A stretch of 32,000 bases of DNA, taken from assembly GCF_016127575.1 (NCBI RefSeq), contig NZ_CP066019.1, positions 330,001 through 362,000 of the forward strand, in the 5' to 3' direction. The DNA is from Cupriavidus necator (GTDB lineage: Bacteria; Pseudomonadota; Gammaproteobacteria; Burkholderiales; Burkholderiaceae). Position numbers and translations under genes: made by a program. A model generated the notes under the pieces. The model was not told the origin of the DNA and did no database searches. It worked only from the letters and a program-made list of their open reading frames with translations. Each line of letters starts with the position of its first letter. Position 1 is the first letter of the stretch. Shown piece after piece: positions 10,091 to 27,106 of the stretch.

Positions 10091-10159
10091 TTGGTGTTTT
10101 CCTCACGATCGACCATGGGACAGATGGTGTGCTTGCGACCGGACTTCACGGTCAGGCGG

Positions 10160-11137
10160 TCACTCTTCACGGGCGCCGGATAGCTTGATCAGGCGCCCGA
10201 TCACGGGCAGTGCGGCCTCGAAGTTCTGGCGGAACTCGGCCGAGCTGTTACCCATCGGCTCGAAGCCGTAGGCCTGGAAGCGTGCCTTCAACGGGGTCGA
10301 GCGGATGATCTCGCGCGAGGTTTTCTCCAGGAACGCCTGCACGTTCGGCGGTATGCCCGCCGGCGCCATCAGCACGATCCAGGCATGCGAGCGGAACTCC
10401 GGGTCGCTGAACCCCGCTTCCGCCATGGTCGGCACGTCCGGCATCGCCGGCAGCCGCGTATCGCCGACCACGGCAAGCGGGCGGATCTTGCCGCTGGCCA
10501 CATACGGCGCCAGCGCACCGGCCGAGGCGATGGTGAGTTGCACCGAGCCACCTGCCAGTCCCTGCAGATCCTGCATCTCGCTGGGATAGGGAATGTGCGA
10601 CATCTCCAGGCCGCGGGAACTGTTGAGATGGCCGATGACGAGATGCGCATTGCTGCCCACGCCGTACGAGCCATAGTTCACCTTGTCCCGGTTGTTCTTC
10701 GCCCAGGCCACGAATTCCTGCAGGTTGCGCGCCGGCACGGCGGCATTGACGGCAAGCACCAGCGTCCCGGCGCTGACCTGCGTAATGAAGGCGAAGTCGC
10801 GGCGCACCTCATAGGGCACCTTTTTCATGGTCAGCGGGACATTGAAGATCGCCGTGGATTGCGCCATCAGCAGCGTATAGCCGTCGGGCGCGGCCCGCGC
10901 CGCCGCCAGCGTGCCGAGCGCGCCCGAGGCACCCGGCTTGTTGACCACGACGACGGGCTGGCCCGTGCGCCGGGTGAACTCATCGCCATAGGCCCGTCCG
11001 ATGGTGTCGACCAGTCCCCCTGGTGCGCTCGGCAGGATGAGCGTAACCGGCTTGCCGGGGTAGGCCTGCGCCATCACGGCGGCACTCCAGGCGAGTGCCA
11101 GGATCGGCAGCAGCGCCTTCTTCTGCTTCATCAACAT
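10160..11137 (-). CDS. Bug-family (TctC-like) periplasmic substrate-binding protein, paralog 1 of a divergent pair
   Basis: The track ORF 10160..11233 is trimmed to ATG 11137, preceded by GAGGAGAAG. It reads MLMKQKKALLPILALAWSAAVMAQAYPGKPVTLILPSAPGG and is 325 aa long. Confidence 0.9.
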   Translation of the reverse strand: MLMKQKKALLPILALAWSAAVMAQAYPGKPVTLILPSAPGGLVDTIGRAYGDEFTRRTGQPVVVVNKPGASGALGTLAAARAAPDGYTLLMAQSTAIFNVPLTMKKVPYEVRRDFAFITQVSAGTLVLAVNAAVPARNLQEFVAWAKNNRDKVNYGSYGVGSNAHLVIGHLNSSRGLEMSHIPYPSEMQDLQGLAGGSVQLTIASAGALAPYVASGKIRPLAVVGDTRLPAMPDVPTMAEAGFSDPEFRSHAWIVLMAPAGIPPNVQAFLEKTSREIIRSTPLKARFQAYGFEPMGNSSAEFRQNFEAALPVIGRLIKLSGAREE

Positions 11138-11367
11138 ATTTGTCTTCTCCTCACACGTACTGCGGGGAGCCAGATCCGGCCCGAAAGCTTGTCGAGATGT
11201 CGCTACGCCATGGTTGCCGCCATCCGGCGCCATCGATACTCCCTGACGCAGGGGGGATCGGAGCGGGGCTTAAGTCCATAAGCCTGCCTTTACGCCAGCA
11301 CTGCCTGCAGGCCAGAGGCGTCTGACCGCGATGGCAGTCGGCGCCGTTAGCGTCCGCCGTGGCCGAT

Positions 11368-11385
11368 GGATTTCACATGAAACGG
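11368..11385. repeat. GGATTTCACATGAAACGG, copy 1 of an inverted near-identical 18/19-mer
   Basis: Read directly. It has an internal dyad TTTCA-CA-TGAAA and lies near the centre of the 447-bp bug/bug divergent spacer. Its partner is at 12584..12602. Confidence 0.6.
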
Positions 11386-11584
11386 CGCTTTTGGCGATGC
11401 GCGGAACCGTTGCGGCGGCACGGCGACAGCCGATGCACGCCCCCGACGGCATAAGCGCTGCTCTTGCCCCCTGCGGCGGGTAGTAGGAATGATCGGCAGC
11501 GGGGGTGACCATGGACGCATCGGGCAATCCCGAAGCGGACGGCTGCATGGCCCGGGCCGCAATATCCCGAAGAGGAGGAGACAC

Positions 11585-12562
11585 ATGCTCATCAGGTGCA
11601 AAAGGGCGCTGCTACCCGTGATGGCAATCATCTGGGGTACCGGCAGCCTTGCGCAAACCTACCCCGACAAGCCTGTCACGCTGATCGTGCCGGCCAGCGC
11701 AGGCGGGGTGGTCGACGCTCTGGCCCGTGCCTATGGCGACGAGTTCAGGAAGCTCACGGGGCAGCCCATGGTGGTCGTCAACAAGCCGGGTGCCTCGGCC
11801 ATGGTGGGGACGCAGATGGCCGCGCGCTCGGCCCCCGATGGCTACACACTGTTGATGACGCAAGCCACGTCCATCCTGAACGGGCCGCTGATGACCAAAA
11901 AGATGCCGTACGACGCGCGGCGCGACCTGGCATTCATCACGCAGGTGGGTACCGGGAACCTCGTCGTGGCCGTAGGCAAGGACGTCCCCGCCCGCAACAT
12001 GCAGGAGTTCATCGCCTGGGCCAAGGCCAACCGTGGCCAGGTCAACTATGGTTCGTACGGCGTCGGCGGCACCGCGCATCTGGTCTCCGCCTACCTGAGC
12101 AGTTCCCGCAACCTGGAGATGTCGCACGTCCCCTATCCGGGCGAAGCGCCGGAGATCCAGGGGCTTGCCGGCGGCGCAGTGCAATGCGCCATTGCTTCGG
12201 CCGGCGCGCTGGCGCCCCATCTGGCAAGCGGCAGGGTGCGCGCGCTGGCCGTGATTGCGGACAAGCGCCTGGCAGCCCTGCCGGACGTGCCGACCATGGC
12301 CGAAGCGGGTCTGCGCGATCCGGAGTTCCGTCCGCAGTCATGGATCGTGCTGATGGCACCGGCGGGCACGCCGCAGAACGTGCTGGCGTTCGTCGAAAAG
12401 ACCTCGCGCGACATCATCCATTCGACGCCGATGAAGGCGCGCTTCCAGGCCTACGGCATCGAGCCGGTCGGCAACAGTTCGGCCGAGTTCCGCCATAACT
12501 TCGAAGCACTCATGCCTGTCATGGAGCGCCTGATCAAGGTATCCGGCGCCGCGGGGGAATGA
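11585..12562 (+). CDS. Bug-family (TctC-like) periplasmic substrate-binding protein, paralog 2 of a divergent pair
   Basis: The track ORF 11489..12562 is trimmed to ATG 11585, preceded by GAGGAGGAGA. It reads MLIRCKRALLPVMAIIWGTGSLAQTYPDKPVTLIVPASAGG, is 325 aa long, and is collinear with 10160..11137. Confidence 0.9.
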   Translation: MLIRCKRALLPVMAIIWGTGSLAQTYPDKPVTLIVPASAGGVVDALARAYGDEFRKLTGQPMVVVNKPGASAMVGTQMAARSAPDGYTLLMTQATSILNGPLMTKKMPYDARRDLAFITQVGTGNLVVAVGKDVPARNMQEFIAWAKANRGQVNYGSYGVGGTAHLVSAYLSSSRNLEMSHVPYPGEAPEIQGLAGGAVQCAIASAGALAPHLASGRVRALAVIADKRLAALPDVPTMAEAGLRDPEFRPQSWIVLMAPAGTPQNVLAFVEKTSRDIIHSTPMKARFQAYGIEPVGNSSAEFRHNFEALMPVMERLIKVSGAAGE

Positions 12563-12583
12563 GCGCGGCCTGGCGGTCTGGTC

Positions 12584-12602
12584 CCGTTTTCATGTGAAGT
12601 CC
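12584..12602. repeat. CCGTTTTCATGTGAAGTCC, copy 2 (reverse complement GGACTTCACATGAAAACGG)
   Basis: Read directly. It sits in the 56-bp bug-synthetase spacer and ends 17 nt before ATG 12619. Confidence 0.6.
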
Positions 12603-12618
12603 GTTTGTCGAGGAGAGT

Positions 12619-14775
12619 ATGTCGCAACGAGAATTTCCATCAGGCATCCGGTCCCTGGATGCCGTGTTCCGCCCGAGATCCATCGCCGTGGTTGGCGCGT
12701 CGGATGATCCGACGCGCATCAATGGACGCCCGATCGCCTTCGCCAGGCGCTTCGGCTACGAAGGCGCCATCTATCCCATCAATCCGTCGCGTCAGACCGT
12801 GCAGGGCCTGCGGGCGTATCCGAGCCTGCGCGACGCGCCCGACGGTATCGACTGCGCGATCATCGCGCTGCCGGCCGCGCTCGTGATCGACGCCCTGCAC
12901 CAGTGCGCTGGCAAGGGCATCCGTGCCGTGGTGCTCTTCACCAGCGGCTTCGCCGAACTCGGGGAAGCGGGCCAGCGCAAGCAGGAGGAGATCACGCGGA
13001 TCGCCAGGGCCCACGGCATCCGGCTGCTCGGCCCCAATGTGATCGGCTGCTTCTGCCTCAGCCGCAAGACCTACGTGACCTTTCTCAGCGATGTGGACGG
13101 CGCACTGCCGGCCGGCAAGCCGCGTATCGGACTGGTCAGCCAGAGCGGCGGCTATGGCGCGCATATCTACAAGCTGGCGCTGCAGCGCGGCCTCGCCGTC
13201 GACCAGGTGGTGACCACCGGCAACGAGGCCGACATCGAACTGGGCGAGGTGATGGAGTGGATGGCGGAGTCGCCCGATGTCGACATCATCGTCGGCTATA
13301 TCGAGGGCATCCGCTCGAAGGCGTCGTTCATTCGCGGCCTGGAGGCTGCGCATCGCAAGCGCAAGCCCGTGGTGCTGATGAAGGTGGGCGCCACGCAGGC
13401 GGGCGCAGCGGCGGCCGCATCGCACACGGCCGCGCTTGCCGGCGCCGATGCCGTGTACGACGCCTTGCTGCGCGAGTATGGCGCCTACCGCGCCAGGTCG
13501 AACGAGGAAGTGCTGGACGTCGTGTACGCGCTGAGCGCCGGCAAGCCCCTGCGCAAGCGCAAGCTGGGCGTGGTCACCATCTCCGGTGGCGCCGGCGTGC
13601 AGATTGCCGATTTCGCATCGGAAGCGGGGCTGGACCTGCCGATGCCATCGGAAGCCACGCAACGCGCACTGCGCGAGATCGCACCGTTCGGCTCGCCCGC
13701 CAATCCGGTCGATGTGACGGCACAGATCTCCAACGACCCCGAGATCTTCACGGCGACGCTGGACCGGCTGCTCGACGCCGGCTATGACTCGCTCCTGATG
13801 TGGCTCGGCCCGGCCGTGACCAATGCGCGCGCCGGTGCTCCGATTCGGGCAACCATCGAACGCATTGCCGCCACGCGCCCGGATGTGCTGCAGACCATCA
13901 ACCTGATCGGCGGGGCCGAGGTGACAAGCGTCTACGAAGCCGCCGGCTGCCTGCTGTTCGAGGAACCGCGCCGCGCGGTCCAGGCGCTGGCCGCACTGCG
14001 GTATTTCGAGCGCGTGTTCTCGCGGCCGCTGCCGGTCCGGCCCGACGTGTCGCAGATGACGCTGCTGGCGCCGGATACCACGTACAACGAGGTGGATGCC
14101 AAGCGGGTGCTGGCGGGCGCCGGGGTGGCCCTGCTCGACGAGCGGCTGGTGCATACCCCGGCGCAAGCCGCCGAGGCTGCGCGCGAGATCGGCCGGCCGG
14201 TAGCGGTCAAGGTCGTGTCGGCCGACATCCAGCACAAGTCCGACGTCGGCGGCGTGGCGCTGTCGCTTGCCTCGCCGGAAGAGGCTGCGCAAGCGGTGCG
14301 GCGCATGGCGGGCGAGATCCCGCGCAAGGCGCCAACGGCGCGCATCGATGGCTACCTGGTGTCGCCCATGCTGAACGACGGCGTGGAGTGCATCGTCGGC
14401 GTGCATGCAGATCCCCTGTTCGGCCCGGTAGTGATGTTCGGCCTCGGCGGCGTGATGGTGGAAGTCATGCAGGACGTCGCGTTCGCGCTGGCGCCGCTGG
14501 ACGAAGCCGGCGCGCTCGAGCTGGTCCGCAGGGTGAAAGGCCATCGCCTGCTGACCGGCTTCCGGGGCAGGCCGCCGGCGGATCTGCCAGCCCTCGCGCG
14601 CGCCATCGCGAGCATTTCCCGGCTTGCCGCACGCAATGCCGACCGCCTTCAGGCACTCGAAGTCAACCCGCTGTGCGTCCTGCCCGAAGGGCAGGGCGTC
14701 GTGGCCCTCGACGCCGTCGTGCAGACCGGCGCACCGGGCCTGCCCATTGCACACCCGCCTGCCAAACAGGATTGA
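12619..14775 (+). CDS. NDP(ADP)-forming acyl-CoA synthetase (acetate--CoA ligase family; CoA-binding + ligase-CoA + ATP-grasp domains)
   Basis: 718 aa with RSIAVVGASDDPTRINGRP, FTSGFAELGEAG, LLGPNVIG and the phospho-His motif AAASHTAALAGA. The C-terminal ATP-grasp part reads VAVKVVSADIQHKSDVGGV. GAGGAGAG precedes the ATG. Confidence 0.9.
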   Translation: MSQREFPSGIRSLDAVFRPRSIAVVGASDDPTRINGRPIAFARRFGYEGAIYPINPSRQTVQGLRAYPSLRDAPDGIDCAIIALPAALVIDALHQCAGKGIRAVVLFTSGFAELGEAGQRKQEEITRIARAHGIRLLGPNVIGCFCLSRKTYVTFLSDVDGALPAGKPRIGLVSQSGGYGAHIYKLALQRGLAVDQVVTTGNEADIELGEVMEWMAESPDVDIIVGYIEGIRSKASFIRGLEAAHRKRKPVVLMKVGATQAGAAAAASHTAALAGADAVYDALLREYGAYRARSNEEVLDVVYALSAGKPLRKRKLGVVTISGGAGVQIADFASEAGLDLPMPSEATQRALREIAPFGSPANPVDVTAQISNDPEIFTATLDRLLDAGYDSLLMWLGPAVTNARAGAPIRATIERIAATRPDVLQTINLIGGAEVTSVYEAAGCLLFEEPRRAVQALAALRYFERVFSRPLPVRPDVSQMTLLAPDTTYNEVDAKRVLAGAGVALLDERLVHTPAQAAEAAREIGRPVAVKVVSADIQHKSDVGGVALSLASPEEAAQAVRRMAGEIPRKAPTARIDGYLVSPMLNDGVECIVGVHADPLFGPVVMFGLGGVMVEVMQDVAFALAPLDEAGALELVRRVKGHRLLTGFRGRPPADLPALARAIASISRLAARNADRLQALEVNPLCVLPEGQGVVALDAVVQTGAPGLPIAHPPAKQD

Positions 14776-14780
14776 TCGAC

Positions 14781-15950
14781 ATGGATCTTTGTCTGACTCC
14801 CTCCCAACTCGCATTCCGCGACGACGTGCGCGCCTTCATCGCGGCGCGCCTGCCTGCCGGCATCCGCGAACGCCTGCGGCGCGGCATGCGTCCGCGCATG
14901 GAAGACAACGCCGTCTGGCATCAGACGCTCAACGAGCGCGGCTGGGTGGCTCCGCACTGGCCGAAGAAATACGGCGGTGCCGGCCTCGGCGCCATCGAGC
15001 GCATCATCCTCACCGACGAGCTGTATCGCGCCTGCGCCCCGCAGCCGCTGGTCATGAACATCAACATGCTCGGCACCTTGCTGCTGCGCTACGGCACCGA
15101 GGCGCAGAAACAGTACTTCCTGCCGAAGCTGCTGGACATGAACGTGATCTTCTGCCAGGGCTTTTCGGAACCGAACTCGGGTTCCGACCTGGCATCGCTG
15201 TCGACGCGTGCCCGCCGCGAGGGCGACCACTATGTGGTGGATGGACAGAAGATCTGGACGTCGCATGCGCACCACGCCAACTGGATGTTCGCGCTGGTAC
15301 GCACGGCGCAGTGCGAACGCAAGCAGGACGGCATCTCGTTCATCCTGATCGACATGAAGAGCCCGGGCGTGTCGGTGCGCCCCATCATGACGATCGACGG
15401 CTACCACAACGTCAACGAGGTGTTCTTCGACAGCGTCCGCGTGCCCGTCGAAAACCTGGTCGGCGAAGAGGGGCGGGGCTGGGCGTGCGCGAAGTACCTG
15501 CTCGGCAACGAGCGCATCCACGTCGCCAACGTCGGCTTCTGCTGGGAGCGCCTGGACTACGCGCGCGAACTCGCCGCAGCCACCCGCCAGGGGGACGGCT
15601 ATCTGATCGACGACCCCCGGGTGCGCGCCGACCTGGCCCGCCTGGGAGCGGAAATCCGGGCACTGGAACTGACGAACTGGCGCTTCCTGCTCGACCCCGA
15701 CATCGAGCGCGCCAATCCCGGCTTCGCGTCCGTGCTCAAGCTCAAGGGCTCGGAGATGGCGCAGGAGCTGACCACCCTGATCGCCGGCATTGCCGGGCCC
15801 GCGGGCGTGGAGCGCCATGCGCTCGATACCGCCGTGCCCGATCCGATGGGCGCCGCCGTGTGGGGATACTTCTTCCATCGGGCCTCGACGATCTTCGGCG
15901 GTTCCAGCGAAGTCCAGAAGGACATTCTTGCCAAGGCAACCCGGGGTTAA
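14781..15950 (+). CDS. acyl-CoA dehydrogenase, large/alpha-type member of a tandem pair (PimC/FadE-like)
   Basis: The track ORF 13800..15950 is trimmed to ATG 14781. Motifs: MDLCLTPSQLAFRDDVRAFIAARLP, WPKKYGGAG, FCQGFSEPNSGSDLASL, GQKIWTS and IFGGSSEVQKDILA. It is a paralog of 30107..31252. Confidence 0.9.
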   Translation: MDLCLTPSQLAFRDDVRAFIAARLPAGIRERLRRGMRPRMEDNAVWHQTLNERGWVAPHWPKKYGGAGLGAIERIILTDELYRACAPQPLVMNINMLGTLLLRYGTEAQKQYFLPKLLDMNVIFCQGFSEPNSGSDLASLSTRARREGDHYVVDGQKIWTSHAHHANWMFALVRTAQCERKQDGISFILIDMKSPGVSVRPIMTIDGYHNVNEVFFDSVRVPVENLVGEEGRGWACAKYLLGNERIHVANVGFCWERLDYARELAAATRQGDGYLIDDPRVRADLARLGAEIRALELTNWRFLLDPDIERANPGFASVLKLKGSEMAQELTTLIAGIAGPAGVERHALDTAVPDPMGAAVWGYFFHRASTIFGGSSEVQKDILAKATRG

Positions 15951-15953
15951 ATC

Positions 15954-17090
15954 ATGAACTTCAATCTGAACGACGAGCAGCGCCAGCTTGCCGACAGCCT
16001 GTCACGCCTGCTGGCCGATCACTACAGCTTCGAGAAGCGCCGTGCGTTGACAAGGCCGGAAGCCACCTGCGAGCCCGCAATCTGGACGCACCTTGCCGCG
16101 CTTGGCGTGACGGCGCTAGGCATCCCCGAGGCATTCGGCGGCCTGGGCGGCGGCACACAGGACCGCCTGCCGGTCATGCAGGCCTTCGGGCGGGCGCTGG
16201 CCATCGAGCCCTACCTCGCCTCGGCCGTGCTCGGCACGACGGCTGTGCGCGAGGGCGGCAGCAGCGCGCAGCAGGCGGAACTCCTGCCTTCGCTGGCAAG
16301 CGGGGAAATGCGTATCGCGTGGGCCCATGACGAGGCGGCCGGCCGGCACGCGCCGCTGTGGGTCGAGACGACCGCCAGGTCCGGTCCCGATGGCTGGCGC
16401 CTGGACGGCGCCAAGGCCCTGGTGCTGCACGGTGGCGCCGTCTCGCGCATCGTCGTGACCGCGCGCACGCGCGGCAAGGCGCAGGACGAGGATGGCCTTG
16501 CGCTATTCCTTGTCGATCCGCAGGCGGACGGCGTGACGCGGCGCGCCTACCGGCTGGTTGACGACACGCCAGCCGTCGAACTGACGCTGCGCAACGCGCA
16601 GGCCTGCCCGCTGGGCGATGTCTCCGACAGCGTCCGCGCGACCGCGGTGATCCGCGCCACGCAGGCCGCCGGCATCGCAGCGGCCTGCGCCGACATGGTC
16701 GGCACCATGGAGACGGCGCTTCAGCTCACCACCGACTACGTTCGCACGCGCAAGCAGTTCGGCCGGCCGATCGGCGACTACCAGTCGATGCGCCACCGCA
16801 TCGCGGACATGTGCGTGAGCCTCGAACTCGCGCGCAGCATGGCGGTGGCCGCCGCCGTTGCGGGCGATGATCCGTCCGGGGACGATGGGCTGGCCGAACT
16901 GTCGCGTGCCAAGCTCGTCATTGGCCGCCATGCCCGCACGCTCTGCCACGCGGCGATCCAGTCGCACGGCGGCATCGGCCTGACCGAAGAGTACGCCGTG
17001 GGGCATTGCCTGCGCCGCGTGCACGTGCTGGACCAGTTGTTCGGGGACTGCGATGCGCATACCCGGTGGCTGGCCGGACAACTGGGCTGA
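15954..17090 (+). CDS. acyl-CoA dehydrogenase family, small/beta-type partner of the tandem pair (PimD-like)
   Basis: 378 aa, starting 3 nt after the upstream stop. Motifs: MNFNLNDEQRQLADSLSRLL, TRKQFGRPIGDYQSMRHRIADM and HGGIGLTEEY. It is a paralog of 31249..>32000. Confidence 0.88.
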   Translation: MNFNLNDEQRQLADSLSRLLADHYSFEKRRALTRPEATCEPAIWTHLAALGVTALGIPEAFGGLGGGTQDRLPVMQAFGRALAIEPYLASAVLGTTAVREGGSSAQQAELLPSLASGEMRIAWAHDEAAGRHAPLWVETTARSGPDGWRLDGAKALVLHGGAVSRIVVTARTRGKAQDEDGLALFLVDPQADGVTRRAYRLVDDTPAVELTLRNAQACPLGDVSDSVRATAVIRATQAAGIAAACADMVGTMETALQLTTDYVRTRKQFGRPIGDYQSMRHRIADMCVSLELARSMAVAAAVAGDDPSGDDGLAELSRAKLVIGRHARTLCHAAIQSHGGIGLTEEYAVGHCLRRVHVLDQLFGDCDAHTRWLAGQLG

Positions 17091-17172: not shown

Positions 17173-18171
17173 ATGCGTAGCGCTCCCCCGATCGTTCTGA
17201 CCGAGCAGGATCGTACCCGGCTCGAAGCGCTCGCTGCGGCGGCGGATGCACCGGCCAGGGTGGCGCAGCGCGCGCGCATCATCCTGCTGGCCGCGGCGGG
17301 AGTACAGAACCAGGCGATTGCCCCGCGCCTCGGCATCGGGCGGGCCCAGGTGGCACGCTGGCGCGAGCGCTATGTGCAAGCCGGGCTGGCCGGCATCCTC
17401 AACGACCTGCCGCGCGGCGCGCCGCCGGTCAAGGTGGACGTGGCGCGCATGGCGGTGCTGACGGGCACGGATGGCAACGGGCAGCCCCGGGCCTGGGGCG
17501 TGCAAAGCCTGGCCACCGAGCTGGGGGTCAGTCCGGCAAGCGTCTCGCGCCACCGGCGTGCCGCGGGACTTGTCTCCGGCAATATGCGCAGGACTGGCTA
17601 TCTCCCCCCCGCGCCGTTCACCGGTGGCATGGCCGAGATCGTTGCCCTGTACGTGTCGGCGCCGGAGCATGCGCTGGTCCTGGCGTTCGATGGAGGCGAG
17701 GACCAGGACAGCAATGCCGGCGCCCTGCCTCGCATGTGCCCGGCGCCGGCACAGCAGCGCAGCCTGACCGCATCGCTGCTGACCGCATCGCTGCTGACCG
17801 CACTCAGGGTACTCGACGGCGAACTTGCGCAGGCGCCTTCCGGGTCCGGCCGGCACAGGCAGTGGCTTGCCTTCCTGCAGGAGGTCGATGCGGCCACCGT
17901 GCCCGGCCGCAGCCTTTGGGTTTTTGCGGACAACCATGCGTGCCACCAGCACGCCGAAGTGCAGCAATGGCTGGAGCGCCATCCGCGCATCACCGTCCAG
18001 CTGGCACCCAGTGCGGCAAGCTGGCTGCGCACGGTCCAGGGGTTCCTGCGGGAGTCCCGGGCCGGCCAGGCGGCCTGCCGGACGAGATTTCCGTCCGGCA
18101 TTCCGGAGGCGCTGGCGGCGATCGAGGCCGCCAGGCGCTCGCGCGGCGCCGTGCCCTACCGATGGATACGC
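17173..18171 (+). mobile_element. IS630-family (DDE_3-type) transposase-derived segment; not an intact IS (no stop of its own, no terminal repeats recognised)
   Basis: Residues 1 to about 333 of ORF 17173..18939 follow the IS630 transposase layout. HTH parts: QRARIILLAAAGVQNQAIAPRLGIGRAQVARWRERYVQAGLAGILNDLPRGAPP and LGVSPASVSRHRRAAGL. Core: HALVLAFDGGE, WVFADNHACHQHAEVQQWLERHPRITVQLAPSAASWLRTVQGF and VPYRWI. The end coordinate is approximate. Confidence 0.6.
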
Positions 18172-18939
18172 GAGCGCGCCGCGGCGCGGGTGACAGACGC
18201 CCGGACCCCTTCGGGGGCACGGCGGCCTGTGCTGCCGGTCGTCGGCACGAAGGTACTGCCGCCGCACGGCACCGGCCAGCTGATGCCGCGCGAAGCCCTG
18301 ATGGCCCGCCTCATGCAGTCGCGCCGGCACCGTTGCGTGGTCATCCAGGGTCAGGCGGGAAGCGGCAAGACCAGCGTGCTGGTGGCCTGGCGCAAGGCGA
18401 TGATCTCCTTCGGCTATGACGTCTGCTGGCTGTCGCTGTCCGTGGAGGACAACGATCCTGCGCGCTTCCTCGACTACCTGTTTGCCAGCATTGCCGAGTC
18501 CGCCCCCACCGTAGCGGGCAAGGTTCAGGAGGTGGGGGCCGGACACGACGGCGAGACGCTGGAACTGCGGATCATTGCGCTGGTACAGGAGCTTTCCCGG
18601 CGCACGCGCGACCTGGTGCTGATGATCGACGACCTGCACCACGTGTCCGATTCGCGCATCCTGCGCGCGCTGCAGTTGCTGCTTGACTACGCCCCGCCGC
18701 AACTGCACGTGGCGGTGGCTTCCCGCACCGCGCTGGAACTGTCCATGGAGCGACTGCGACTGCAGAACCTGCTGGCGGAATTCGACATGCGCGACCTGCG
18801 CTTTTCGCCCGAGGAGTCGGCCCGCTTCCTGCTTGACCGCCTGGGCAGCATCACGCCCGCCGACGCGGCAGCCATGCACGAACTGACCGACGGATGGGTG
18901 GCCGGCCTGCAACTGCTGGCAATCGGGCTGCGCAAGTAG
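17173..18939 (+). CDS. fusion ORF: transposase-like N-terminal module + STAND/MalT-type P-loop NTPase domain, ending at an in-frame TAG (5' part of a split LuxR/MalT-family regulator)
   Basis: 588 aa. Walker A GQAGSGKT is at 18349..18372 and Walker B LVLMIDDLH at 18613..18639, followed by the MalT-like LTDGWVAGLQLLAIGL. No SD precedes ATG 17173. It is in the same frame as 18958..20850. Confidence 0.75.
   Translation: MRSAPPIVLTEQDRTRLEALAAAADAPARVAQRARIILLAAAGVQNQAIAPRLGIGRAQVARWRERYVQAGLAGILNDLPRGAPPVKVDVARMAVLTGTDGNGQPRAWGVQSLATELGVSPASVSRHRRAAGLVSGNMRRTGYLPPAPFTGGMAEIVALYVSAPEHALVLAFDGGEDQDSNAGALPRMCPAPAQQRSLTASLLTASLLTALRVLDGELAQAPSGSGRHRQWLAFLQEVDAATVPGRSLWVFADNHACHQHAEVQQWLERHPRITVQLAPSAASWLRTVQGFLRESRAGQAACRTRFPSGIPEALAAIEAARRSRGAVPYRWIRERAAARVTDARTPSGARRPVLPVVGTKVLPPHGTGQLMPREALMARLMQSRRHRCVVIQGQAGSGKTSVLVAWRKAMISFGYDVCWLSLSVEDNDPARFLDYLFASIAESAPTVAGKVQEVGAGHDGETLELRIIALVQELSRRTRDLVLMIDDLHHVSDSRILRALQLLLDYAPPQLHVAVASRTALELSMERLRLQNLLAEFDMRDLRFSPEESARFLLDRLGSITPADAAAMHELTDGWVAGLQLLAIGLRK
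17764..17802 (+). repeat. 15-bp tandem repeat CTGACCGCATCGCTG, 2.6 copies, in frame (LTASL-LTASL-LTA)
   Basis: Read directly: unit 1 at 17764..17778, unit 2 at 17779..17793, and a partial unit at 17794..17802. Confidence 0.9.
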
Positions 18940-18957
18940 CGGCCCGGCAGCTACCCT

Positions 18958-20850
18958 GTGGCGCAACTCCGCGATCCCCGCGCGTTCGCGAGCTACTTCG
19001 AGCGTGAAGTGCTGGTCCGGCTGGCTCCGGACGATCTCGATGTCCTGACGCGCGTGGCCATCTGCCAGCGATTCTGTGCGTCGCTGTGCGCCGAGATACT
19101 GGGCCAGCCGCAAGCCGTGACGCGGCTCGGGAGCCGCATCTCGCAGATGGTGGCCGACAACCTGTTCATCTCGGTCGTGCCCGGCCATGATGATGAAACG
19201 TGGTACCGGATCCATCCGCTGTGGCGCGAGACGCTGCGCGGCCACATCGACGATGCCGTGCTGCATGCCGTGAGGGCCGGTGAACCCGCAGCGGCAGCGA
19301 ATCTGGTCGAAGGCTGCGCGCTGGCCTTGCTGGCGCGCGGTGAGCTGAGCCGGGTGGCCGGCCTGGTGCGCATGCTGCCGGACGAACAAGTCCGCCAGCG
19401 CTACCGCCTGCATGGCGTGATGGCGTACATGCAGCTCTACGCACGCGATTTCGAGGCCCTGCGGGTCTCCCTGGCGCTGCTGGAGGCGCAGCGCGACGCC
19501 CTCAGCGCGAGCGGGCGCTACAGCCTGAGCCTGCTGAAGGCAGGGCTGGCGCTGCAGTTCGACGAGAGCGACGAAGCCGCGGCGATGCTCGATGAGCTGC
19601 GCAATGCGCCGCCGGACACGATCGAATTCGTCTGGCATACGCGTGCCAATGTGCTGTCGCTGCTCCTCACGCAACGCGGCGAGCATGACCTCGCCCGCAG
19701 CGTTCTGGAAGAGGCCGACCAGCGCACCCGCTCACGGCGCAGCTGGCTGCTGGGCCGCTGCATCCATGCGCTTGGCCTTGCGCAGGAAGGCCAGATCCAG
19801 GAAGCCGGCAGGATCGTGAAGGAGGTGCTGGAAGAGGCCGAAGGCCTCGGGCAGGGCTATGTGCCGGTGGCGGGCATGGCAGCGGGCCTGCTGGCCGATA
19901 CGCTGTACGAACTGAACGAGACCGAGGCCGTCTGCCATCTGCTGGAACCGCGCATGGGCGCGCTGGAGCGTGCGTCGCTGCCGGAGGTGGTGCTGCGTGC
20001 GAGCCTGGTGCTTTCGAACTCGCACTGGCAGGCCGGCCGCAGCGCGCAGGCCCTGGCCTGCCTTGACCGCCTCGAAGCCTATGCCAGACGGTACGCGCTG
20101 GACCGCGTGCTGGCCGAAGCGATGGTGCTGCGTCTGCGCCGGCATTTGCACGGCGGCGAGATGGAGCAGGCCGCGCTCGTGCTGGATCGTGTCGAAGCGC
20201 TGGCGTCGCGCCACGCCGGGTCCGGCCCTGGAAAGTCTGCCCAGATCGCACGCGCGGCAAGCTGCGCCTGGATCGATATGGCGCTGTACACGCGCAATTT
20301 CGCCGGTGCGCTGGAGCGCATCCCCCCGCTGATCGCCGGCGGCGACCAGAGCGCCGGCACGGTCGGCCTGCGCATGCAGCTTGCCGCGGCGCGCCTGGGC
20401 CTCGGCGAGACGCAGGCTGGCCGGGACGACTTCATCGAGGCAATGCGCGTGGGACATCGGCTGGGCCTGTCGCGGACGCTGCTGGATGCCTTGCAGACCG
20501 TGCCGGATGCTCTCGATATGCTGGCGCGCGATCCGTTGCCTGATCCCGTCCTGGCGTTCCAGGTCCAGCGCCTGATGCATGCGCTGCGCTCGGCTGCGGG
20601 CCGGCATGGCCGCGCGACAGGCGGCCACGAAGCCGACGCCTTGCGCCTGCTCAGCGGGCGCGAGCGGGAGATCCTGCAACTGCTGGCCCAGGCCATGTCG
20701 AACAAGAAGATCGCGATGATCCTGAACGTCTCCGCCGAGACGGTCAAATGGCATCTCAGGAACATCTACGCCAAGCTGGGCGTCGGCAGTCGCGCGGGCG
20801 CTGCGGCATTGCTGCGCGACATGGCCGGGCCGGCGGCGGCGAACCACTGA
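18958..20850 (+). CDS. 3' part of the split MalT/LuxR-family regulator: helical-repeat sensor region + C-terminal LuxR/GerE HTH
   Basis: 630 aa from a GTG with no SD. It continues the MalT-like sequence directly (FEREVLVRLAPDDLDVLTRVAICQRFCASLCAEI, WYRIHPLWRETL). The C-terminus reads LSGREREILQLLAQAMSNKKIAMILNVSAETVKWHLRNIYAKLGV (about 20650..20820). It is probably not an independent gene. Confidence 0.7.
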   Translation: MAQLRDPRAFASYFEREVLVRLAPDDLDVLTRVAICQRFCASLCAEILGQPQAVTRLGSRISQMVADNLFISVVPGHDDETWYRIHPLWRETLRGHIDDAVLHAVRAGEPAAAANLVEGCALALLARGELSRVAGLVRMLPDEQVRQRYRLHGVMAYMQLYARDFEALRVSLALLEAQRDALSASGRYSLSLLKAGLALQFDESDEAAAMLDELRNAPPDTIEFVWHTRANVLSLLLTQRGEHDLARSVLEEADQRTRSRRSWLLGRCIHALGLAQEGQIQEAGRIVKEVLEEAEGLGQGYVPVAGMAAGLLADTLYELNETEAVCHLLEPRMGALERASLPEVVLRASLVLSNSHWQAGRSAQALACLDRLEAYARRYALDRVLAEAMVLRLRRHLHGGEMEQAALVLDRVEALASRHAGSGPGKSAQIARAASCAWIDMALYTRNFAGALERIPPLIAGGDQSAGTVGLRMQLAAARLGLGETQAGRDDFIEAMRVGHRLGLSRTLLDALQTVPDALDMLARDPLPDPVLAFQVQRLMHALRSAAGRHGRATGGHEADALRLLSGREREILQLLAQAMSNKKIAMILNVSAETVKWHLRNIYAKLGVGSRAGAAALLRDMAGPAAANH

Positions 20851-21066
20851 TCTCCCCGCAGGGCAGGACTGATCCGGAAACCCACGACATCGCAGTCATC
20901 CCTGCAGCCACGGAAGCTGCGCCCTCGGGGCGCTCGCGGCGCAGTCCATGCCGTGTACCGGCGGCGCACATCCGTTCTCATACCAACTGGCGCACACCCC
21001 GTCAAACTCCGGCTCCGGCCACATCTCCAACCCGTGCCGGGGAGGCGGCTACGTTCCGGGCGCGTG

Positions 21067-21411
21067 CCGCGCGTGGTGGGCCTGGCCGTGGCGAAGGACA
21101 TGATGATGACCGCGCGCCGCATCGGCGTGGAAGAGGCAAGGGAGCTTGGTATCGTCCATTCCGTCTACACGCCGGAGGCATTGCCGGAGGAGGCCCGCCG
21201 CCTCGCGCGCCGTTTCCTGGCGGGTCCCCCGCAGGCGCTCGGGCAGACCAAGCGGATGCTCAATGGCAGTTTCGAGACCTCCTACGCAGTATTCGTGGAG
21301 CTTGAAGCGAACGCGCAGGCCGTGGCGACCACCACGGCTTATCACGCACAGGCGCTGCAGCGCTTCGCGCGCGGCCAACCCTTGCGTTTCGACTGGGACC
21401 GTGCAGAGTGA
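21067..21411 (+). pseudogene. 5'-truncated enoyl-CoA hydratase (crotonase) remnant, C-terminal ~114 codons only
   Basis: PRVVGLAVAKDMMMTARRIGVEEARELGIVHSVYTPEALPEEARRLARRFLAGPPQALGQTKRMLNGSFETSYAVFVELEANAQAVATTTAYHAQALQRFARGQPLRFDWDRAE is collinear with the C-terminus of 7197..8027 (PRVVGMAAAKDLMMTARRVSAEEAKDLGIVYS...RYDWDRQA). The N-terminal catalytic part is missing. Confidence 0.8.
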
Positions 21412-21453: not shown

Positions 21454-22656
21454 TCATCGCGGTGTGTCGGTGGTCCTCCCAATCAGAAGCCACGTTTGCA
21501 GGTCACCGATGCCCTTTGCCGGAACCAGTCCGCGCGCTTCAAGCAGGAATGGTTCGCCAAGCTTCTGCCGGGTGGCTTCCGTTACCTGAACGCGGCCGAC
21601 CACGCCCTGGGACTCCATCCGGCTGGCGATATTCACGGTATCGCCCCATAAGTCGTAGATGAACTTCCTGCGCCCGATCACGCCAGCCACGACAGCGCCG
21701 CTGTGGATGCCAACCCGCAACTGCAGGTTGTAGCCGCTTCGCCGATTGAATTTGCCCAGCGACTCGATCATGTCCAGCGCCATATGAGCGGCCCGAACGG
21801 CATGATCGGCCGCTGGCACCGGCAGGCCGGCGGCTGCCATGTAGGCGTCGCCGATCGTCTTGATCTTTTCGAGCCCCCGGCTGTCCGCGATATTGTCAAA
21901 TTCGGCAAATATCTCGTTCAGTACTGCCACCAGCCGTTCCGGGTTCAGGCTGGGGGAAAAACGGGTGAACTGTACGAGGTCTGCAAATAGAACGGACACT
22001 TCCTGGAACTTGTCGGCAATGACCTCCGGAGGGGCGGCGGCAATGAGATCGGGGCGCAGCTTCAGACGCTCGGCAATGGGGGCGGGCAGCACGTTGAGCA
22101 GCAGCCGTTCGGTCACCTGTTGCTCGCAGACGAGCTTGTCGTAAAGGCGCCTGAGCTCGTCGCTCTGGCGAACGATGGTCTCCCGGCTCGTTTCCAGTTC
22201 GCGCACCTTCCGCTCGAGTTCCTTGCCGTATTTCAGCGATTCCCCGTGCAGCAGGCGCACTTCCAGCATATTGCGAACCCGCATCAGTACCTCGGCCAGG
22301 TCAAACGGCTTGCTGACGAAGTCTTTCGCACCGGCTTGCAGCGCGCGCACCTTGTGGTCTGGCTGGGCCGTGATGACGATCACCGGAAGATAACTGTCTG
22401 CCTGGATCTGCTTGAGGCCTTCCATGACCTCGAAACCATCCATGCCGGGCATCTGGAGATCCAGCAGGATCAGGTCATAGTGGTTACTGCTGTGAAGCTC
22501 GCAGACCCGGCGTGGATCCATGGTTGACGCAACGCGAGCATAGCCGGCCCCGCGCAGCATCTGCTCGAGCAGCAGGACATTGGCCTCCAGGTCGTCAACG
22601 ACCAGGATCCTTGCCGCCAGAATGTCCGATGCGCTGATCATGTCGTGTTGCTTCAC
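21454..22656 (-). CDS. response regulator (REC) - coiled coil - class III adenylate cyclase
   Basis: 400 aa. REC motifs: ILVVDDLEAN, LILLDLQMPGMDG and FVSKPF. Cyclase motifs: VLFADLVQFT, KIKTIGDAYM, YDLWGDTVNIASRMES. GTG start at 22656 with GGAG upstream, overlapping the kinase stop (GTGA); ATG at 22641 is an alternative. Confidence 0.88.
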   Translation of the reverse strand: MKQHDMISASDILAARILVVDDLEANVLLLEQMLRGAGYARVASTMDPRRVCELHSSNHYDLILLDLQMPGMDGFEVMEGLKQIQADSYLPVIVITAQPDHKVRALQAGAKDFVSKPFDLAEVLMRVRNMLEVRLLHGESLKYGKELERKVRELETSRETIVRQSDELRRLYDKLVCEQQVTERLLLNVLPAPIAERLKLRPDLIAAAPPEVIADKFQEVSVLFADLVQFTRFSPSLNPERLVAVLNEIFAEFDNIADSRGLEKIKTIGDAYMAAAGLPVPAADHAVRAAHMALDMIESLGKFNRRSGYNLQLRVGIHSGAVVAGVIGRRKFIYDLWGDTVNIASRMESQGVVGRVQVTEATRQKLGEPFLLEARGLVPAKGIGDLQTWLLIGRTTDTPR

Positions 22657-24260
22657 GGACTCCGGACAGGCCCTCCGTGGGCGAGCTCCAATGCCGCGTT
22701 CAGTGCGTCCATGAACTCGTTGAGCCTGATCGGCTTGGTCAGATACCGGAAGAAGCCCGCTTTCGTACCTTTCTCGATATCGCGCGGCATCGCATTGGCA
22801 CTGAGGGCGATCACCGGAATGTGCGCTGTCCTGGGGTCTTCGCGCAGAAGTCCCAGCGCTTCGATGCCGTTGATATCCGGCAGATGGATATCCATCACGA
22901 TCACTTCTGGCAGGGCGGTGCGCGCGAGTTCGAGGCCAAGCGTTCCGGTGATCGCGGTCAGCAGCCGCATACCCGCCCGGCGCGCGATGAGTTGCTCGAC
23001 CAGTTTCAGGTTGGCGGGGTTGTCTTCGACATACAGCAGGGTATGCGCTGAAGGGCCGTGCTCTGATTGCGCCTGCGCCGGTACCGCCGGCTCGACGCTC
23101 TCGCCCGCCAATTCCGGGGGGCGGGAAGCGGGCAGTTCAACCCAGAATACGCTGCCTGCCTCAACCGCACTTTCGGCGCCGATGCTGCCTCCCATCAGTT
23201 CCACCAGGCGCTTGGCCACCACGAGGCCGATGCCTGTGCCTTCTTCGGGGCCCGCTTCTTGCCCGAGGCGGTTGAACGGCCGAAAAAGTTGTGCGAGCTG
23301 CTCCCGTGCCAATCCTGCGCCCGTGTCGCGCACGCTGATGCGAATGCGGTCCCCTGCGGTAACGCTCACTTCAACTGTTCCTTGATCTCGGTTGTATTTG
23401 ATGGCGTTAGACAGGAGATTGAGCAGGATCTGCTTTAGCCGGGTGCGATCCGCGCGAACAAAACATGGGAAATTGAACGATGGGAAGCGCATGCGAACCC
23501 CTCGCTTCAGTGCCTGCTGTTCGACCATGGCGTGGCATTCGCGCAAGGCTTCGGCCAGGGATACCGGCTCTGGCGACAGCGACGCCTGCCCGGCCTCGAT
23601 CTTCGCGAGATCCAGGACCTCATTGATCAATTCCAGCAAATGCCAGCCGGCTTTCAGAATCTGGTCAATGCTGGCCTGCTGCGCGGGGGGCGGCGGCGGC
23701 GAATCCGAAGCCATCAACTGCGCGAAGCCAAGGATCGCATTCAAGGGGCTCCGCAATTCATGGCTCATGCTGGAAAGGAAATCGGATTTCGCACGGTTGG
23801 CGCCCTCGGCCGCTGCCTGCGCCCGCTTCTGGTCCTCGATGTCGGTGCAGGTCGCAAACCACTTTACGATATTTCCGTCGCGATCCTTGAATGGCGCTCC
23901 GCGGGCAAGGTGGCATCGATAGGCGCCATCGGAAGCTCTCCTCAGGCGAAATTCGAGTTCATATTCGCACCCGCTTGCATGGGCGCTTCTCCAGCGTTTG
24001 CTGGTGCCTTGCATATCATCCGGATGGACGACAGTCTGCCAAGCCCCGAGTTGGGTTTGCTCAAGCGTAAGTCCGGTATAGGTAGACCAGCGCTGGTTGC
24101 AGTAGTCGATCCAGCCATCGGGTTTCGCGGTAAACACGATATGGGGTATGCCGTCGGCCAGCAATCTGAAGTGCTGTTCCCCCTCCTGAATGCCGGAGGC
24201 TGAGGGAGATGGCTTTGCCGACCGGTGCGTGGATGGCTTGCGCATGATCTGCCACAACAA
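22653..24260 (-). CDS. soluble hybrid sensor histidine kinase (PAS - HisKA - HATPase_c - REC)
   Basis: 535 aa. PAS: FRLLADGIPHIVFTAKPDGWIDYCNQRW...FATCTDIEDQK. H-box SHELRSPLNAI, N-box LLSNAIKYN, G-boxes VRDTGAGL and GTGIGL. Receiver: LLYVEDNPANL...VIVMDIHLPDINGIE...YLTKP. No hydrophobic membrane segment is evident. The start is uncertain (TTG 24260 or ATG 24245). Confidence 0.88.
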   Translation of the reverse strand: MLWQIMRKPSTHRSAKPSPSASGIQEGEQHFRLLADGIPHIVFTAKPDGWIDYCNQRWSTYTGLTLEQTQLGAWQTVVHPDDMQGTSKRWRSAHASGCEYELEFRLRRASDGAYRCHLARGAPFKDRDGNIVKWFATCTDIEDQKRAQAAAEGANRAKSDFLSSMSHELRSPLNAILGFAQLMASDSPPPPPAQQASIDQILKAGWHLLELINEVLDLAKIEAGQASLSPEPVSLAEALRECHAMVEQQALKRGVRMRFPSFNFPCFVRADRTRLKQILLNLLSNAIKYNRDQGTVEVSVTAGDRIRISVRDTGAGLAREQLAQLFRPFNRLGQEAGPEEGTGIGLVVAKRLVELMGGSIGAESAVEAGSVFWVELPASRPPELAGESVEPAVPAQAQSEHGPSAHTLLYVEDNPANLKLVEQLIARRAGMRLLTAITGTLGLELARTALPEVIVMDIHLPDINGIEALGLLREDPRTAHIPVIALSANAMPRDIEKGTKAGFFRYLTKPIRLNEFMDALNAALELAHGGPVRSP

Positions 24261-25923: not shown

Positions 25924-27087
25924 GTGACTGCAAGTCTCGAATCGTTGCCGCTCGTCGCCATCCCGCCGGCGGACGAAGCGCTGCGCGGCCCGATCCGCGC
26001 ATTCCTCGAAGGAAAGCTGGCCAACGTGCCGACGCATATCCGCGCCCGCACCTGGATGGGCTATGACGCCGACTTCAGCCGCGCGCTCGCGAAACAGGGC
26101 TGGCTCGGCCTCGCCCTGCCAAAGGAGTATGGCGGCGCCGGCCGCAGCGCATTCGCCCGCTTCGTGCTGGTGGAGGAACTGATCGCCGCCGGTGCGCCGG
26201 TGTCGGCCCACTGGTTCGCCGATCGCCAGACCGCCCCGCTGATCCTGAAGTTCGGCACGCCGGCACAGCGCGAGTTTTTCGTCCCGCGCATGGTGCGCGG
26301 CGAGATCTTCATGTGCATCGGCATGAGCGAGCCCGACACCGGCTCCGATCTCTCCAGCGTGCGCACGCGCGCCGTACGCACCGGCACGGGCTGGCGCCTG
26401 AACGGCCGCAAGATCTGGACGACCAATGCCCACCGCACGCAGTACATGTGCGCGCTGGTGCGGACGTCGGGCCAGCACGGCGACCGCCACAAGGGCCTGT
26501 CGCAGGTACTGATCGACCTCAGCCTGCCCGGCATCAGCTACCGCCCGATCAAGGACCTCGCCGGCGACGCGCACTTCTGCGAAGTCGTCTTCGAGGACGT
26601 GGACCTGCCGGCCGACGCCATCGTCGGCGAAGAAGGCTCGGGCTGGAAGCAGGTGACTGCGGAACTTGCCTTCGAGCGCAGCGGACCGGAGCGCATCCTG
26701 ACCAGCCAGCTGCTGGCCGAGACGTGGCTGGCCGAAGTGCGTGCGTCGGGCCTTGCCGTGCCCGATTCGGTGAAGGTCATCGCCGGCCGCATCGCCGGCC
26801 GCCTGGCGGCGCTTCGCACGATGTCGCTCGCCGTCGCCGACCTGCTCGACAAGGGCCAGAACCCCGAGACCGACGCCGCCTACGTGAAGGACCTCGGCAC
26901 CGAGTTCGAGCAGACCGTGCCGGGCTGGATTGCCTCGGCCATCGAGCAGATGCCGGACTTCGCGCCGTCGGAGACGCTGCAACGCGCGCTCGCCTACATC
27001 ACGCAGCTTTGCCCGAGCTTCTCGCTGCGCGGCGGCACCCGCCAGATCCTGCGCGGCATCATCGCCCGCTCGCTGGGCCTGCGCTAA
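25924..27087 (+). CDS. acyl-CoA dehydrogenase, alpha-type member of a tandem pair
   Basis: 387 aa with a GTG start and GGAG 8 nt upstream. Motifs: PKEYGGAG, CIGMSEPDTGSDLSS, GRKIWTTNAH and a C-terminal LRGGTRQILRGIIAR. Confidence 0.88.
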   Translation: MTASLESLPLVAIPPADEALRGPIRAFLEGKLANVPTHIRARTWMGYDADFSRALAKQGWLGLALPKEYGGAGRSAFARFVLVEELIAAGAPVSAHWFADRQTAPLILKFGTPAQREFFVPRMVRGEIFMCIGMSEPDTGSDLSSVRTRAVRTGTGWRLNGRKIWTTNAHRTQYMCALVRTSGQHGDRHKGLSQVLIDLSLPGISYRPIKDLAGDAHFCEVVFEDVDLPADAIVGEEGSGWKQVTAELAFERSGPERILTSQLLAETWLAEVRASGLAVPDSVKVIAGRIAGRLAALRTMSLAVADLLDKGQNPETDAAYVKDLGTEFEQTVPGWIASAIEQMPDFAPSETLQRALAYITQLCPSFSLRGGTRQILRGIIARSLGLR

Positions 27088-27106
27088 GACATTACCGGAG
27101 ACGACC

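Follow-up and report, generated by a model that had tools for sequence, protein, structure and literature searches.

The stretch of DNA analysed here, referred to as the window, covers 32,000 nucleotides of the Cupriavidus necator genome (contig NZ_CP066019.1, positions 330,001 to 362,000 of the forward strand), and this report concerns a reading frame at positions 17173-20850 of it in which an IS630-type transposase sequence, here called the head, is joined to a MalT-like transcriptional regulator. The open reading frame (ORF) 17173..18939 on the + strand starts with ATG, encodes 588 amino acids (aa) and ends at an in-frame TAG, according to the ORF listing and its translation. Past the TAG the same frame runs on to a stop at 20848-20850, and 17173-20850 as a whole makes up 1225 codons with a single interruption at codon 589. 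The 588-aa product is 100% identical to a C. necator protein (P0001) and corresponds to 421836-423602 of AM260480.1 (C. necator H16 chromosome 2), the window lying at ~404664-436663 of that replicon. The frame is laid out as follows.

17173..18939, + strand: first ORF, with the IS630-derived head, a linker and a MalT-type NTPase (profile matches)
17173..17577, + strand: bipartite paired-like DNA-binding region, with a first helix-turn-helix (HTH1) at aa 1-85 and a second (HTH2) at aa 86-135 (Pfam HTH models)
17620..18177, + strand: catalytically dead RNase-H-like core of DDE_3 type (alignments; sub-threshold DDE_3 match)
18178..18240, + strand: junction linker from head to MalT N-terminus, poorly conserved in relatives, where it measures ~20 to ~100 aa
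18241..18936, + strand: STAND NTPase (NOD) of MalT type (NF003420, AAA_16)
18349-18372, + strand: Walker A, GQAGSGKT (motif location)
18613-18639, + strand: Walker B, LVLMIDDLH (motif location)
18892-18912, + strand: GWVAGLQ motif (motif location)
18937..18939, + strand: in-frame TAG at the NTPase/winged-helix boundary, a place where 9/9 homologs carry R or K
18958..20850, + strand: second ORF, 630 aa with a GTG start, containing winged helix and arm, helical-repeat sensor and GerE HTH (Pfam; full-length alignment to homologs)
~20650-20808, + strand: GerE HTH (Pfam GerE)

An earlier note on this DNA, made from the letters alone, had proposed that the head follows the IS630 transposase plan and that a MalT-type body comes directly after it, and profile searches bear out both statements. 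The NCBIfam model transpos_IS630 (NF033545) matches aa 32-285 over profile positions 1-262 of 299 with 103.7 bits, against a curated cut-off of 100 bits, and the Pfam models HTH_23, HTH_29 and HTH_28 are above threshold in the first ORF together with AAA_16, while HTH_32 and DDE_3 (24 bits, cut-off 28.6 bits) stay below threshold on the head. The MalT equivalog model NF003420 matches aa 357-584 of the 588-aa ORF with 134.6 bits and the second ORF with 69.6 bits, GerE is found at aa 565-617 of the second ORF with 67.3 bits, and the motifs quoted in the note lie at the expected places. Measured against the equivalog cut-off of 537 bits, these scores class the fused family with the MalT-like/LAL regulators, not with the MalT orthologs. 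WHD_MalT is a precomputed annotation on the 630-aa product; TPR models are sub-threshold in the window copy, and TPR_MalT passes in two relatives (P0123 and P0004). The closest solved relative of the intact H16 paralog, described below, is MalT (8bob_C). As the note had also stated, no stop codon separates head and NTPase in the translated frame of 17173-20850, and no inverted repeat bounding the head was found in a repeat search of the window.

The head resembles, and is clearly distinct from, the active IS630 elements of the genus. The nearest genuine IS630 transposases (361 aa, e.g., P0059 of C. necator) are 42-44% identical to it over the whole transposase length and present the same order of parts, namely HTH1, HTH2 and the RNase-H-like core; HTH1 is 64% identical to that of an active transposase, and the motif DLPRGAPPVKVD is identical in both. 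Of the catalytic triad, the window copy retains D1 (LAFDGG, 17680-17697) and D2 (FADNH, ADN; 17923-17937), but has Q (WLRTVQGF, 18022-18045) in place of the catalytic E of NMVERFF in active transposases. This E to Q replacement is present in every fused homolog aligned. Only the window copy and its closest paralog have kept the first D; P0121/P0266, P0122, P0123, P0003, P0008 and P0017 have also lost D1 or D2, and in the C. metallidurans fused protein 3/3 catalytic residues are gone. In addition, the alignment shows 10-14 aa after D1 deleted in fused heads compared with active transposases. The head has a GC content of 0.72 and a third-position GC content (GC3) of 0.83, similar to neighbouring genes, as opposed to a GC of 0.63 for the active insertion sequence (IS) gene.

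A related active Cupriavidus IS of 1170 bp (L003 1417-2586) is bounded by 32-nt terminal inverted repeats (TIRs) starting CTAGTG, and the terminal-repeat search proposed in the note returned none of these ends: full outer-TIR patterns and an 11-nt core of the related active IS gave 0 matches in the window or any fused locus. A relic IS left end upstream of the head was considered, as the gap there is ~80 bp and the IS leader is 84 bp; the upstream ~80-bp gaps of five fused loci showed no alignable similarity to the IS left end, and the idea was abandoned for this reason. Out of four features of IS630 elements the head thus displays the match to the family model and lacks the catalytic triad, TIRs with TA duplication and a stand-alone mobile ORF, and homologs of the dead head were found only joined to MalT-like bodies, in conserved synteny. 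Judged by these features, the head is not an insertion sequence.

The same fusion recurs as intact genes. An exhaustive HMMER search of 1.84 billion representative proteins recovered the intact full-length fused proteins P0121 (1269 aa), P0122 (1289 aa) and P0123 (1278 aa), and the P0121 cluster takes in the C. metallidurans proteins P0266 (WP_286881854.1) and WP_186426244.1. A 923-aa entry (P0002) is the beginning of a 1290-aa C. necator H16 protein, P0274 (CAJ95192.1), which is an intact paralog of the window gene encoded at 446502-450374 of H16 chromosome 2, ~21 kb beyond the point where the window gene ends and ~10 kb from the window itself; another intact ORF, of 1276 aa and C. basilensis type, lies on a metagenome contig (L019). 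Altogether, intact fusions of 1269-1290 aa exist in at least five diverged lineages, with a constant order of parts and a variable junction linker. The note had asked whether the fusion would recur as an intact ORF with the same junction: recurrence was found, and the junction differs from lineage to lineage. Its view that a transposon-derived HTH/RNase-H-like head has been captured as an N-terminal domain agrees with these intact fusions in several diverged lineages and with the degraded triad.

A second group of complete proteins of 981-1024 aa (P0004-7, P0010, P0011, P0124, P0126), one of them from Pseudorhodoferax, has a short head, in which HTH1 alone is retained before the MalT-like body; P0004 retains HTH1 and HTH2. 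In a neighbour-joining tree of the MalT part, which is crude and without support values, full-head proteins cluster, short-head proteins form the neighbouring group, and the window copy pairs with the H16 paralog as its sister. As far as such a tree can tell, this grouping is consistent with one ancient fusion and later trimming. In the same tree a head-less protein of 927 aa (P0009) nests in the full-head group and another of 904 aa (P0012) in the short-head group, which could mean that the head was lost secondarily or that the gene calls are cut short on small contigs. The fused gene of assembly GCA_001725945.1 (L001) is broken up by gene calling into products of 425, 556 and 134 aa, and the neighbouring AMP-binding, DUF2889 and thiolase genes are also split; these splits look like frameshift errors in a low-quality assembly and not like biology.

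Conservation differs sharply between the parts of these proteins. Pairwise identities among the four intact full-length fused proteins amount to 59-75% in HTH1, 54-70% in HTH2, 37-52% in the dead core, 5-29% in the linker (~20-100 aa), 52-74% in the NTPase, 43-62% in the sensor and 80-95% in GerE. Over all compared pairs, the linker reaches 5-33% as against 37-60% in the dead core, and in HTH1 the fused proteins share 59-76% identity with one another and 62-67% with the active IS630 transposase, i.e., they are equally close to both. These domain-wise identities, including the closeness of HTH1 to active transposase, indicate therefore that the head is under constraint, most strongly in its first HTH. 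We relied on domain identities and a relative-rate test because an analysis of nonsynonymous to synonymous substitution rates (dN/dS) on close orthologs was not feasible: within the C. metallidurans cluster there are no more than 8 residue differences between members, and pairs at greater distance are saturated. On the aligned sequences, then, the family has lost the features of mobility, and an intact ORF has been conserved at orthologous positions over a long time.

The copy in the window has fared differently from its intact relatives. The same product with the same TAG occurs on many independent H16 assemblies and read sets; such recurrence of the 588-aa product rules out a sequencing error as the source of the TAG. 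Two further lesions accompany it.

17764..17793, + strand: perfect 15-bp tandem duplication (CTGACCGCATCGCTG twice), which adds LTASL within the dead core and is without counterpart in the paralog and all homologs
19225..19245, + strand: scar of a 75-bp (25-codon) in-frame deletion, where the translation reads RETL-RGH (alignment with homologs and paralog DNA)

The segment deleted at the second site, LLxxLAxxxxxxxRALHxAAxxWFxA, belongs to the beginning of the winged-helix/arm and sensor part and is conserved in 9/9 homologs; the deletion is clean with respect to the paralog DNA, in which the similar 9-mers CTCGGCTAC and CGCGGCCAC border the deleted stretch. In a relative-rate test with the C. 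metallidurans fused protein as outgroup, the window lineage has accumulated 142 unique substitutions and the intact paralog 90 (p=6e-4), the excess being strongest in the NTPase (29 versus 6). Beyond identical sequence, no relative above 61% identity was found in a collection of 5.8 billion proteins, and no intact ortholog is known. Taken together with a truncated gene downstream, this pattern of lesions indicates that the window copy is almost certainly a pseudogene, whose product, if there is one, is most likely no more than the 588-aa head and NTPase, lacking an output domain. The note had read the locus as a signal-sensing regulator. That reading holds for the family and almost certainly fails for this copy, given the TAG, the 25-codon deletion, the 15-bp duplication, the faster evolution and the truncated downstream gene.

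The promoters that follow the intact genes offer a hint as to what the head may do. The intergenic DNA after four intact full-head genes shares, by sequence comparison, a block directly upstream of the next ATG, consisting of one or two copies of CATAAGTTCCA and, ~15-40 bp on, the near-palindrome ACCCGnGTCGGGGAG. In the H16 paralog the variant of the first box is CATAAGCTCCG, and the promoter upstream of its short-chain dehydrogenase/reductase (SDR) gene (L004 14140-14236) contains CATAAGCTCCG and ACCCGAGTCGGGGAG. Every intact full-head locus (12-24 kb) contains a single GGARCTTAT and a single palindrome, always in the intergenic DNA just after the regulator. Read on the opposite strand, the first box is TGGAACTTATG, which agrees with nt 24-33 in the left TIR (TGGAACTTAT) of the active Cupriavidus IS630 element. 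This inner TIR box, T[GT][GA]A[AG]CTTA, is common to three diverged active IS relatives, and at least six diverged full-head loci have the TGGAACTTATG box itself in the same position. The resemblance suggests that the head may still bind a transposon-end-like operator. Remnants of both boxes are recognizable downstream of the window copy.

20969..20979, + strand: CATCCGTTCTC, degenerate remnant of the TIR-like box CATAAGTTCCA (promoter alignment)
21030..21044, + strand: palindromic GC-rich box ACCCGTGCCGGGGAG, one mismatch from ACCCGnGTCGGGGAG (comparison with intact loci)

A scan of metagenomes with the two-box pattern gave seven hits, five of them directly downstream of a family member, and the hits with enough upstream DNA carry a full head (3/3). 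The boxes are thus conserved with the gene in further lineages; the scan is not independent proof, as loci of this kind had supplied the two-box pattern. In a short-head locus, 11 nt in the leader of an SDR gene (L018 2160-2170) match a TIR but are without the GAACTTA core, and the match was for this reason taken as chance. Just after the stop codon of the H16 paralog, between the intact regulator and its conserved promoter boxes, lies a nested palindromic element of ~170 bp (L004 13902-14069), similar to repetitive extragenic palindromic (REP) sequences or miniature inverted-repeat transposable elements (MITEs), in which 37-nt arms with 86% complementarity are enclosed by perfect arms of 15 nt and by 16-nt arms.

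We consider it probable, at roughly 0.7, that the locus is a decaying paralog in a small conserved family of MalT-like activators with a permanently acquired IS630 transposase N-terminus, the family being known from Cupriavidus and a few other Burkholderiales. On the model of MalT, an inducer would occupy the helical sensor and ATP the NTPase of intact members, which would oligomerize, and the oligomerized regulator would activate the adjacent catabolic operon through GerE dimers, for which the palindrome ACCCGnGTCGGGGAG is the likely, predicted site. The head is best explained as a DNA-binding module, because HTH1 is its most conserved part and the sole part retained in reduced lineages. With weaker support, it would act as a second, paired-like module, putatively recognizing the TGGAACTTATG box in the same promoter, and the dead RNase-H-like core may serve as a scaffold or dimerization surface. 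It is a possibility, and a tentative one, that both halves of the transposon were domesticated together, such that the head recognizes the inner TIR box (TGGAACTTA) as a promoter operator beside the palindromic GerE site. If true, the regulator would read two DNA signals with two unrelated HTH modules, and it might cross-talk with active IS630 copies of the same genome.

Several observations weigh against this interpretation of the locus and its family. The match to the TIR box was noticed post hoc; chance matches of 10-11 nt to some part of a TIR occur about once per 20-30 kb, and a rough estimate for a conserved promoter motif coinciding with any TIR 10-mer is ~1e-3, which is not proof. Furthermore, in the single short-head locus that was examined, a similar palindrome, TACCCCAGCGGGGTA, occupies the corresponding position, and there is no clear TIR-like box. 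The taxonomic range of the family rests on a handful of named cluster members. All three lesions of the window copy preserve the frame, and its Walker A/B motifs are intact, as is GerE, which leaves a small probability that a split or read-through product has residual activity. Structure prediction, which the note had proposed as a check for an RNase-H fold, gave supporting evidence only: the AlphaFold2 (AF2) model of the head, only moderately confident (pLDDT 71, pTM 0.50), shows a beta-alpha core of moderate pLDDT, and its top Foldseek matches in the PDB are the Mos1 mariner transposase (E 5.5e-4), the best match, and the SETMAR DNA-binding domain, but the third strand of the RNase-H fold is not modelled and the TM-scores are low.

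The explanations that compete with an acquired, conserved head differ widely in how well they account for the data. The note had allowed for a recent accidental fusion, in which an active IS630 element had freshly inserted before a MalT-like gene without any conserved counterpart. The name 'IS630 family transposase' is indeed what NCBI gives to the 588-aa product, the score for the NCBIfam IS630 model lies just above its cut-off, and related active IS630 elements are present in Cupriavidus. However, a head only 42-44% identical to the nearest active transposases, bare of TIRs or IS ends, with Q for the catalytic E and host-like composition, and recurring in the same intact fusion with conserved synteny in at least five diverged lineages, leaves a fresh insertion practically ruled out. 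That the head is neutral baggage, an in-frame transposase remnant in the course of being lost, is quite improbable. It would accord with the trimming of the head in the sister group, with the nesting of head-less P0009 among full-head members of the crude tree and with the dead core being the least conserved structured part, yet ~340 codons have stayed open and alignable at 37-75% identity next to a linker with 5-29% identity and up to fivefold variation in length, and neutrality is disfavoured because neutral sequence at such divergence would have gained stops and frameshifts. A more serious competitor, though still a doubtful one, holds that the head is a protein-protein module for autoinhibition, oligomerization or partner docking, that its promoter boxes are bound by GerE or other factors and that the TIR resemblance is coincidental. 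STAND proteins often bear N-terminal regulatory or effector modules, and inhibitors of MalT act on its N-terminal domain; both the chance TIR k-mer matches and the short-head locus without a TIR-like box would be accommodated. Against it stand the properties of HTH1, which is the best-conserved part of the head, the only one kept in reduced lineages and as close to active transposases (62-67%) as the fused proteins are to each other, a pattern that indicates retained DNA-binding constraints, as well as the constant position of the TGGAACTTATG box in at least six full-head loci and its coincidence with the conserved inner TIR box.

It is also unlikely that the window copy itself is still functional, be it by read-through of the TAG (1225 aa) or as two reassembling polypeptides. 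The position of the TAG would suit a split protein, as it corresponds to position ~227 of the MalT profile, where the NTPase gives way to the winged helix, with a GTG start 19 nt past it; the three lesions are all in frame with Walker A/B and GerE intact, and the palindromic box survives with one mismatch. On the other hand, a 25-aa segment present in 9/9 homologs is absent, substitution is significantly accelerated, notably in the NTPase (29 versus 6), no obvious Shine-Dalgarno sequence was seen before the GTG, the TIR-like box is degenerate, the gene after the promoter remnant is a fragment, and no intact ortholog closer than 61% identity was found among 5.8 billion clustered proteins. Decay of this one copy within a family that is otherwise maintained remains our preferred account of the locus.

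The surroundings of the genes give the family a metabolic context. Every family member examined sits among acyl-CoA metabolism genes with TctC-type binding proteins, in clusters that include AMP- or NDP-forming CoA ligases, SDR genes, paired acyl-CoA dehydrogenases (ACADs), MaoC or enoyl-CoA hydratase (ECH) genes, CoA-transferases and thiolase/ChsH2-like genes. Downstream gene order was compared in full-head members with readable downstream DNA: SDR and ACAD genes lie 3' of the regulator in the H16 paralog, the C. metallidurans type and P0122, and in the first two of these the series reads SDR-ACAD-ACAD-MaoC-TctC. Around the window copy the genes are the following.

11585..17090, + strand: upstream co-directional catabolic genes, including a TctC-type binding protein (annotation)
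12619-14775, + strand: NDP-forming acyl-CoA synthetase, upstream of the window regulator
14781-15950 and 15954-17090, + strand: two ACAD genes, homologous to those 3' of the intact paralog (44% and 41% identity)
21064..21411, + strand: truncated ECH gene, a C-terminal fragment (ORF 20953-21411; 115-aa gene called) covering ECH_1 positions 138-242 of 251

The ECH fragment directly follows the promoter remnant and occupies the place of the relatives' SDR-ACAD-ACAD-MaoC operon, which points to a deletion that removed the 5' part of a former operon there. Another LuxR-family factor of H16, H16_B1342, which is a different gene, positively regulates a neighbouring beta-oxidation cluster (PMC12285253). 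A CoA-transferase(-) TctC(-) / TctC(+) arrangement stands upstream of the fused gene in both H16 loci (window 8858-12562; L004 6287-9920). Since the proteins are only 31-35% identical between the two loci, this is a recurring type of module and not a recent segmental duplication. At three loci a short AMP-binding ORF of 182-198 aa lies 3' of the fused regulator (L006 14126-14722, L012 6471-7019, L001 11906-12490), its ATG abutted by the promoter boxes, with a complete AMP-binding ligase of 631-635 aa 5' of the regulator; the short ORF may be a gene remnant or have a mis-called start. Further along the window, the minus strand at 21454-24260 encodes a 400-aa protein that joins a response regulator to an adenylate/guanylate cyclase domain and, after it, a PAS hybrid histidine kinase (535 aa), a signalling pair between catabolic clusters that appears unrelated to the fused regulator. 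At 25924-28120 (L008 18752-20948) two adjacent ACAD-like genes, the first with N-terminal and middle domains and the second mainly with the C-terminal domain, may represent either the alpha and beta parts of a heteromeric ACAD or a single gene that has been split.

The body of the fused proteins is that of the MalT/LAL STAND regulators, with a Walker A/B NTPase, winged helix and arm, a helical-repeat sensor and a C-terminal GerE domain, and like those regulators they are encoded beside the catabolic genes they presumably activate. In contrast, E. coli MalT is without the 340-aa transposase-derived N-terminal module, the fused family resides among acyl-CoA/beta-oxidation genes instead of maltodextrin genes, and the window copy, interrupted by the TAG and partly deleted, is not a single polypeptide as MalT is. 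Unlike IS630 elements, the head has neither TIRs nor TA-flanked ends nor its own stop codon, and its GC content is raised to the host level. The closest precedents are found among the domesticated transposases. SETMAR (Metnase), CENP-B and the PAX paired domain are domesticated Tc1/mariner/pogo transposases of eukaryotes. As in SETMAR, a transposase of the same superfamily is fused in frame to a host gene, its triad is mutated and its HTH region is best preserved; TIR-derived binding sites may be a further shared trait, the binding of TIR-like DNA by the bacterial head being only inferred. SETMAR differs in that its SET methyltransferase is N-terminal, whereas here a STAND activator is C-terminal to the transposase, and in bacteria. 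In the TldR proteins, which are TnpB-like nuclease-dead repressors, a transposon nuclease has been domesticated as a transcription factor in bacteria. TldR thus shares with the fused family a transposon-encoded nuclease fold that has lost catalysis and is re-used in bacterial gene regulation, but it is a RuvC-type, RNA-guided, stand-alone repressor, whereas a DDE-type protein-DNA module is fused here to an activator. An antiviral STAND (Avs) or other defence system was also considered and rejected, PADLOC giving weak matches of the GerE HTH to CARF-associated HTH models and none to an Avs or NTPase model.

No description of a transposase-headed MalT-like regulator was found in the full-text literature, coverage of which was incomplete. 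This agrees with the earlier note, whose author knew of no described class, although the proteins themselves are already in public databases under generic names. Public records call the 588-aa fragment 'IS630 family transposase' or 'Transposase or inactivated derivative', and the intact 1290-aa paralog appears as 'Serine/threonine protein kinase', 'IS630 family transposase' or 'LuxR C-terminal-related transcriptional regulator'. Bacterial ORFs derived from insertion sequences are routinely annotated as transposases or pseudogenes and then ignored, and the domestication of DDE transposases into host regulators, well documented in eukaryotes, has rarely been reported in bacteria. The fused family presents an experimentally tractable bacterial example in C. 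necator H16, a genetically amenable and industrially used organism, and it comes with a natural series of full head, HTH-only head, possibly a head-less relative and a decayed copy, together with a candidate operator. The family probably controls uncharacterized organic-acid beta-oxidation modules of chromosome 2, which would make it relevant to the engineering of substrate use in this organism.

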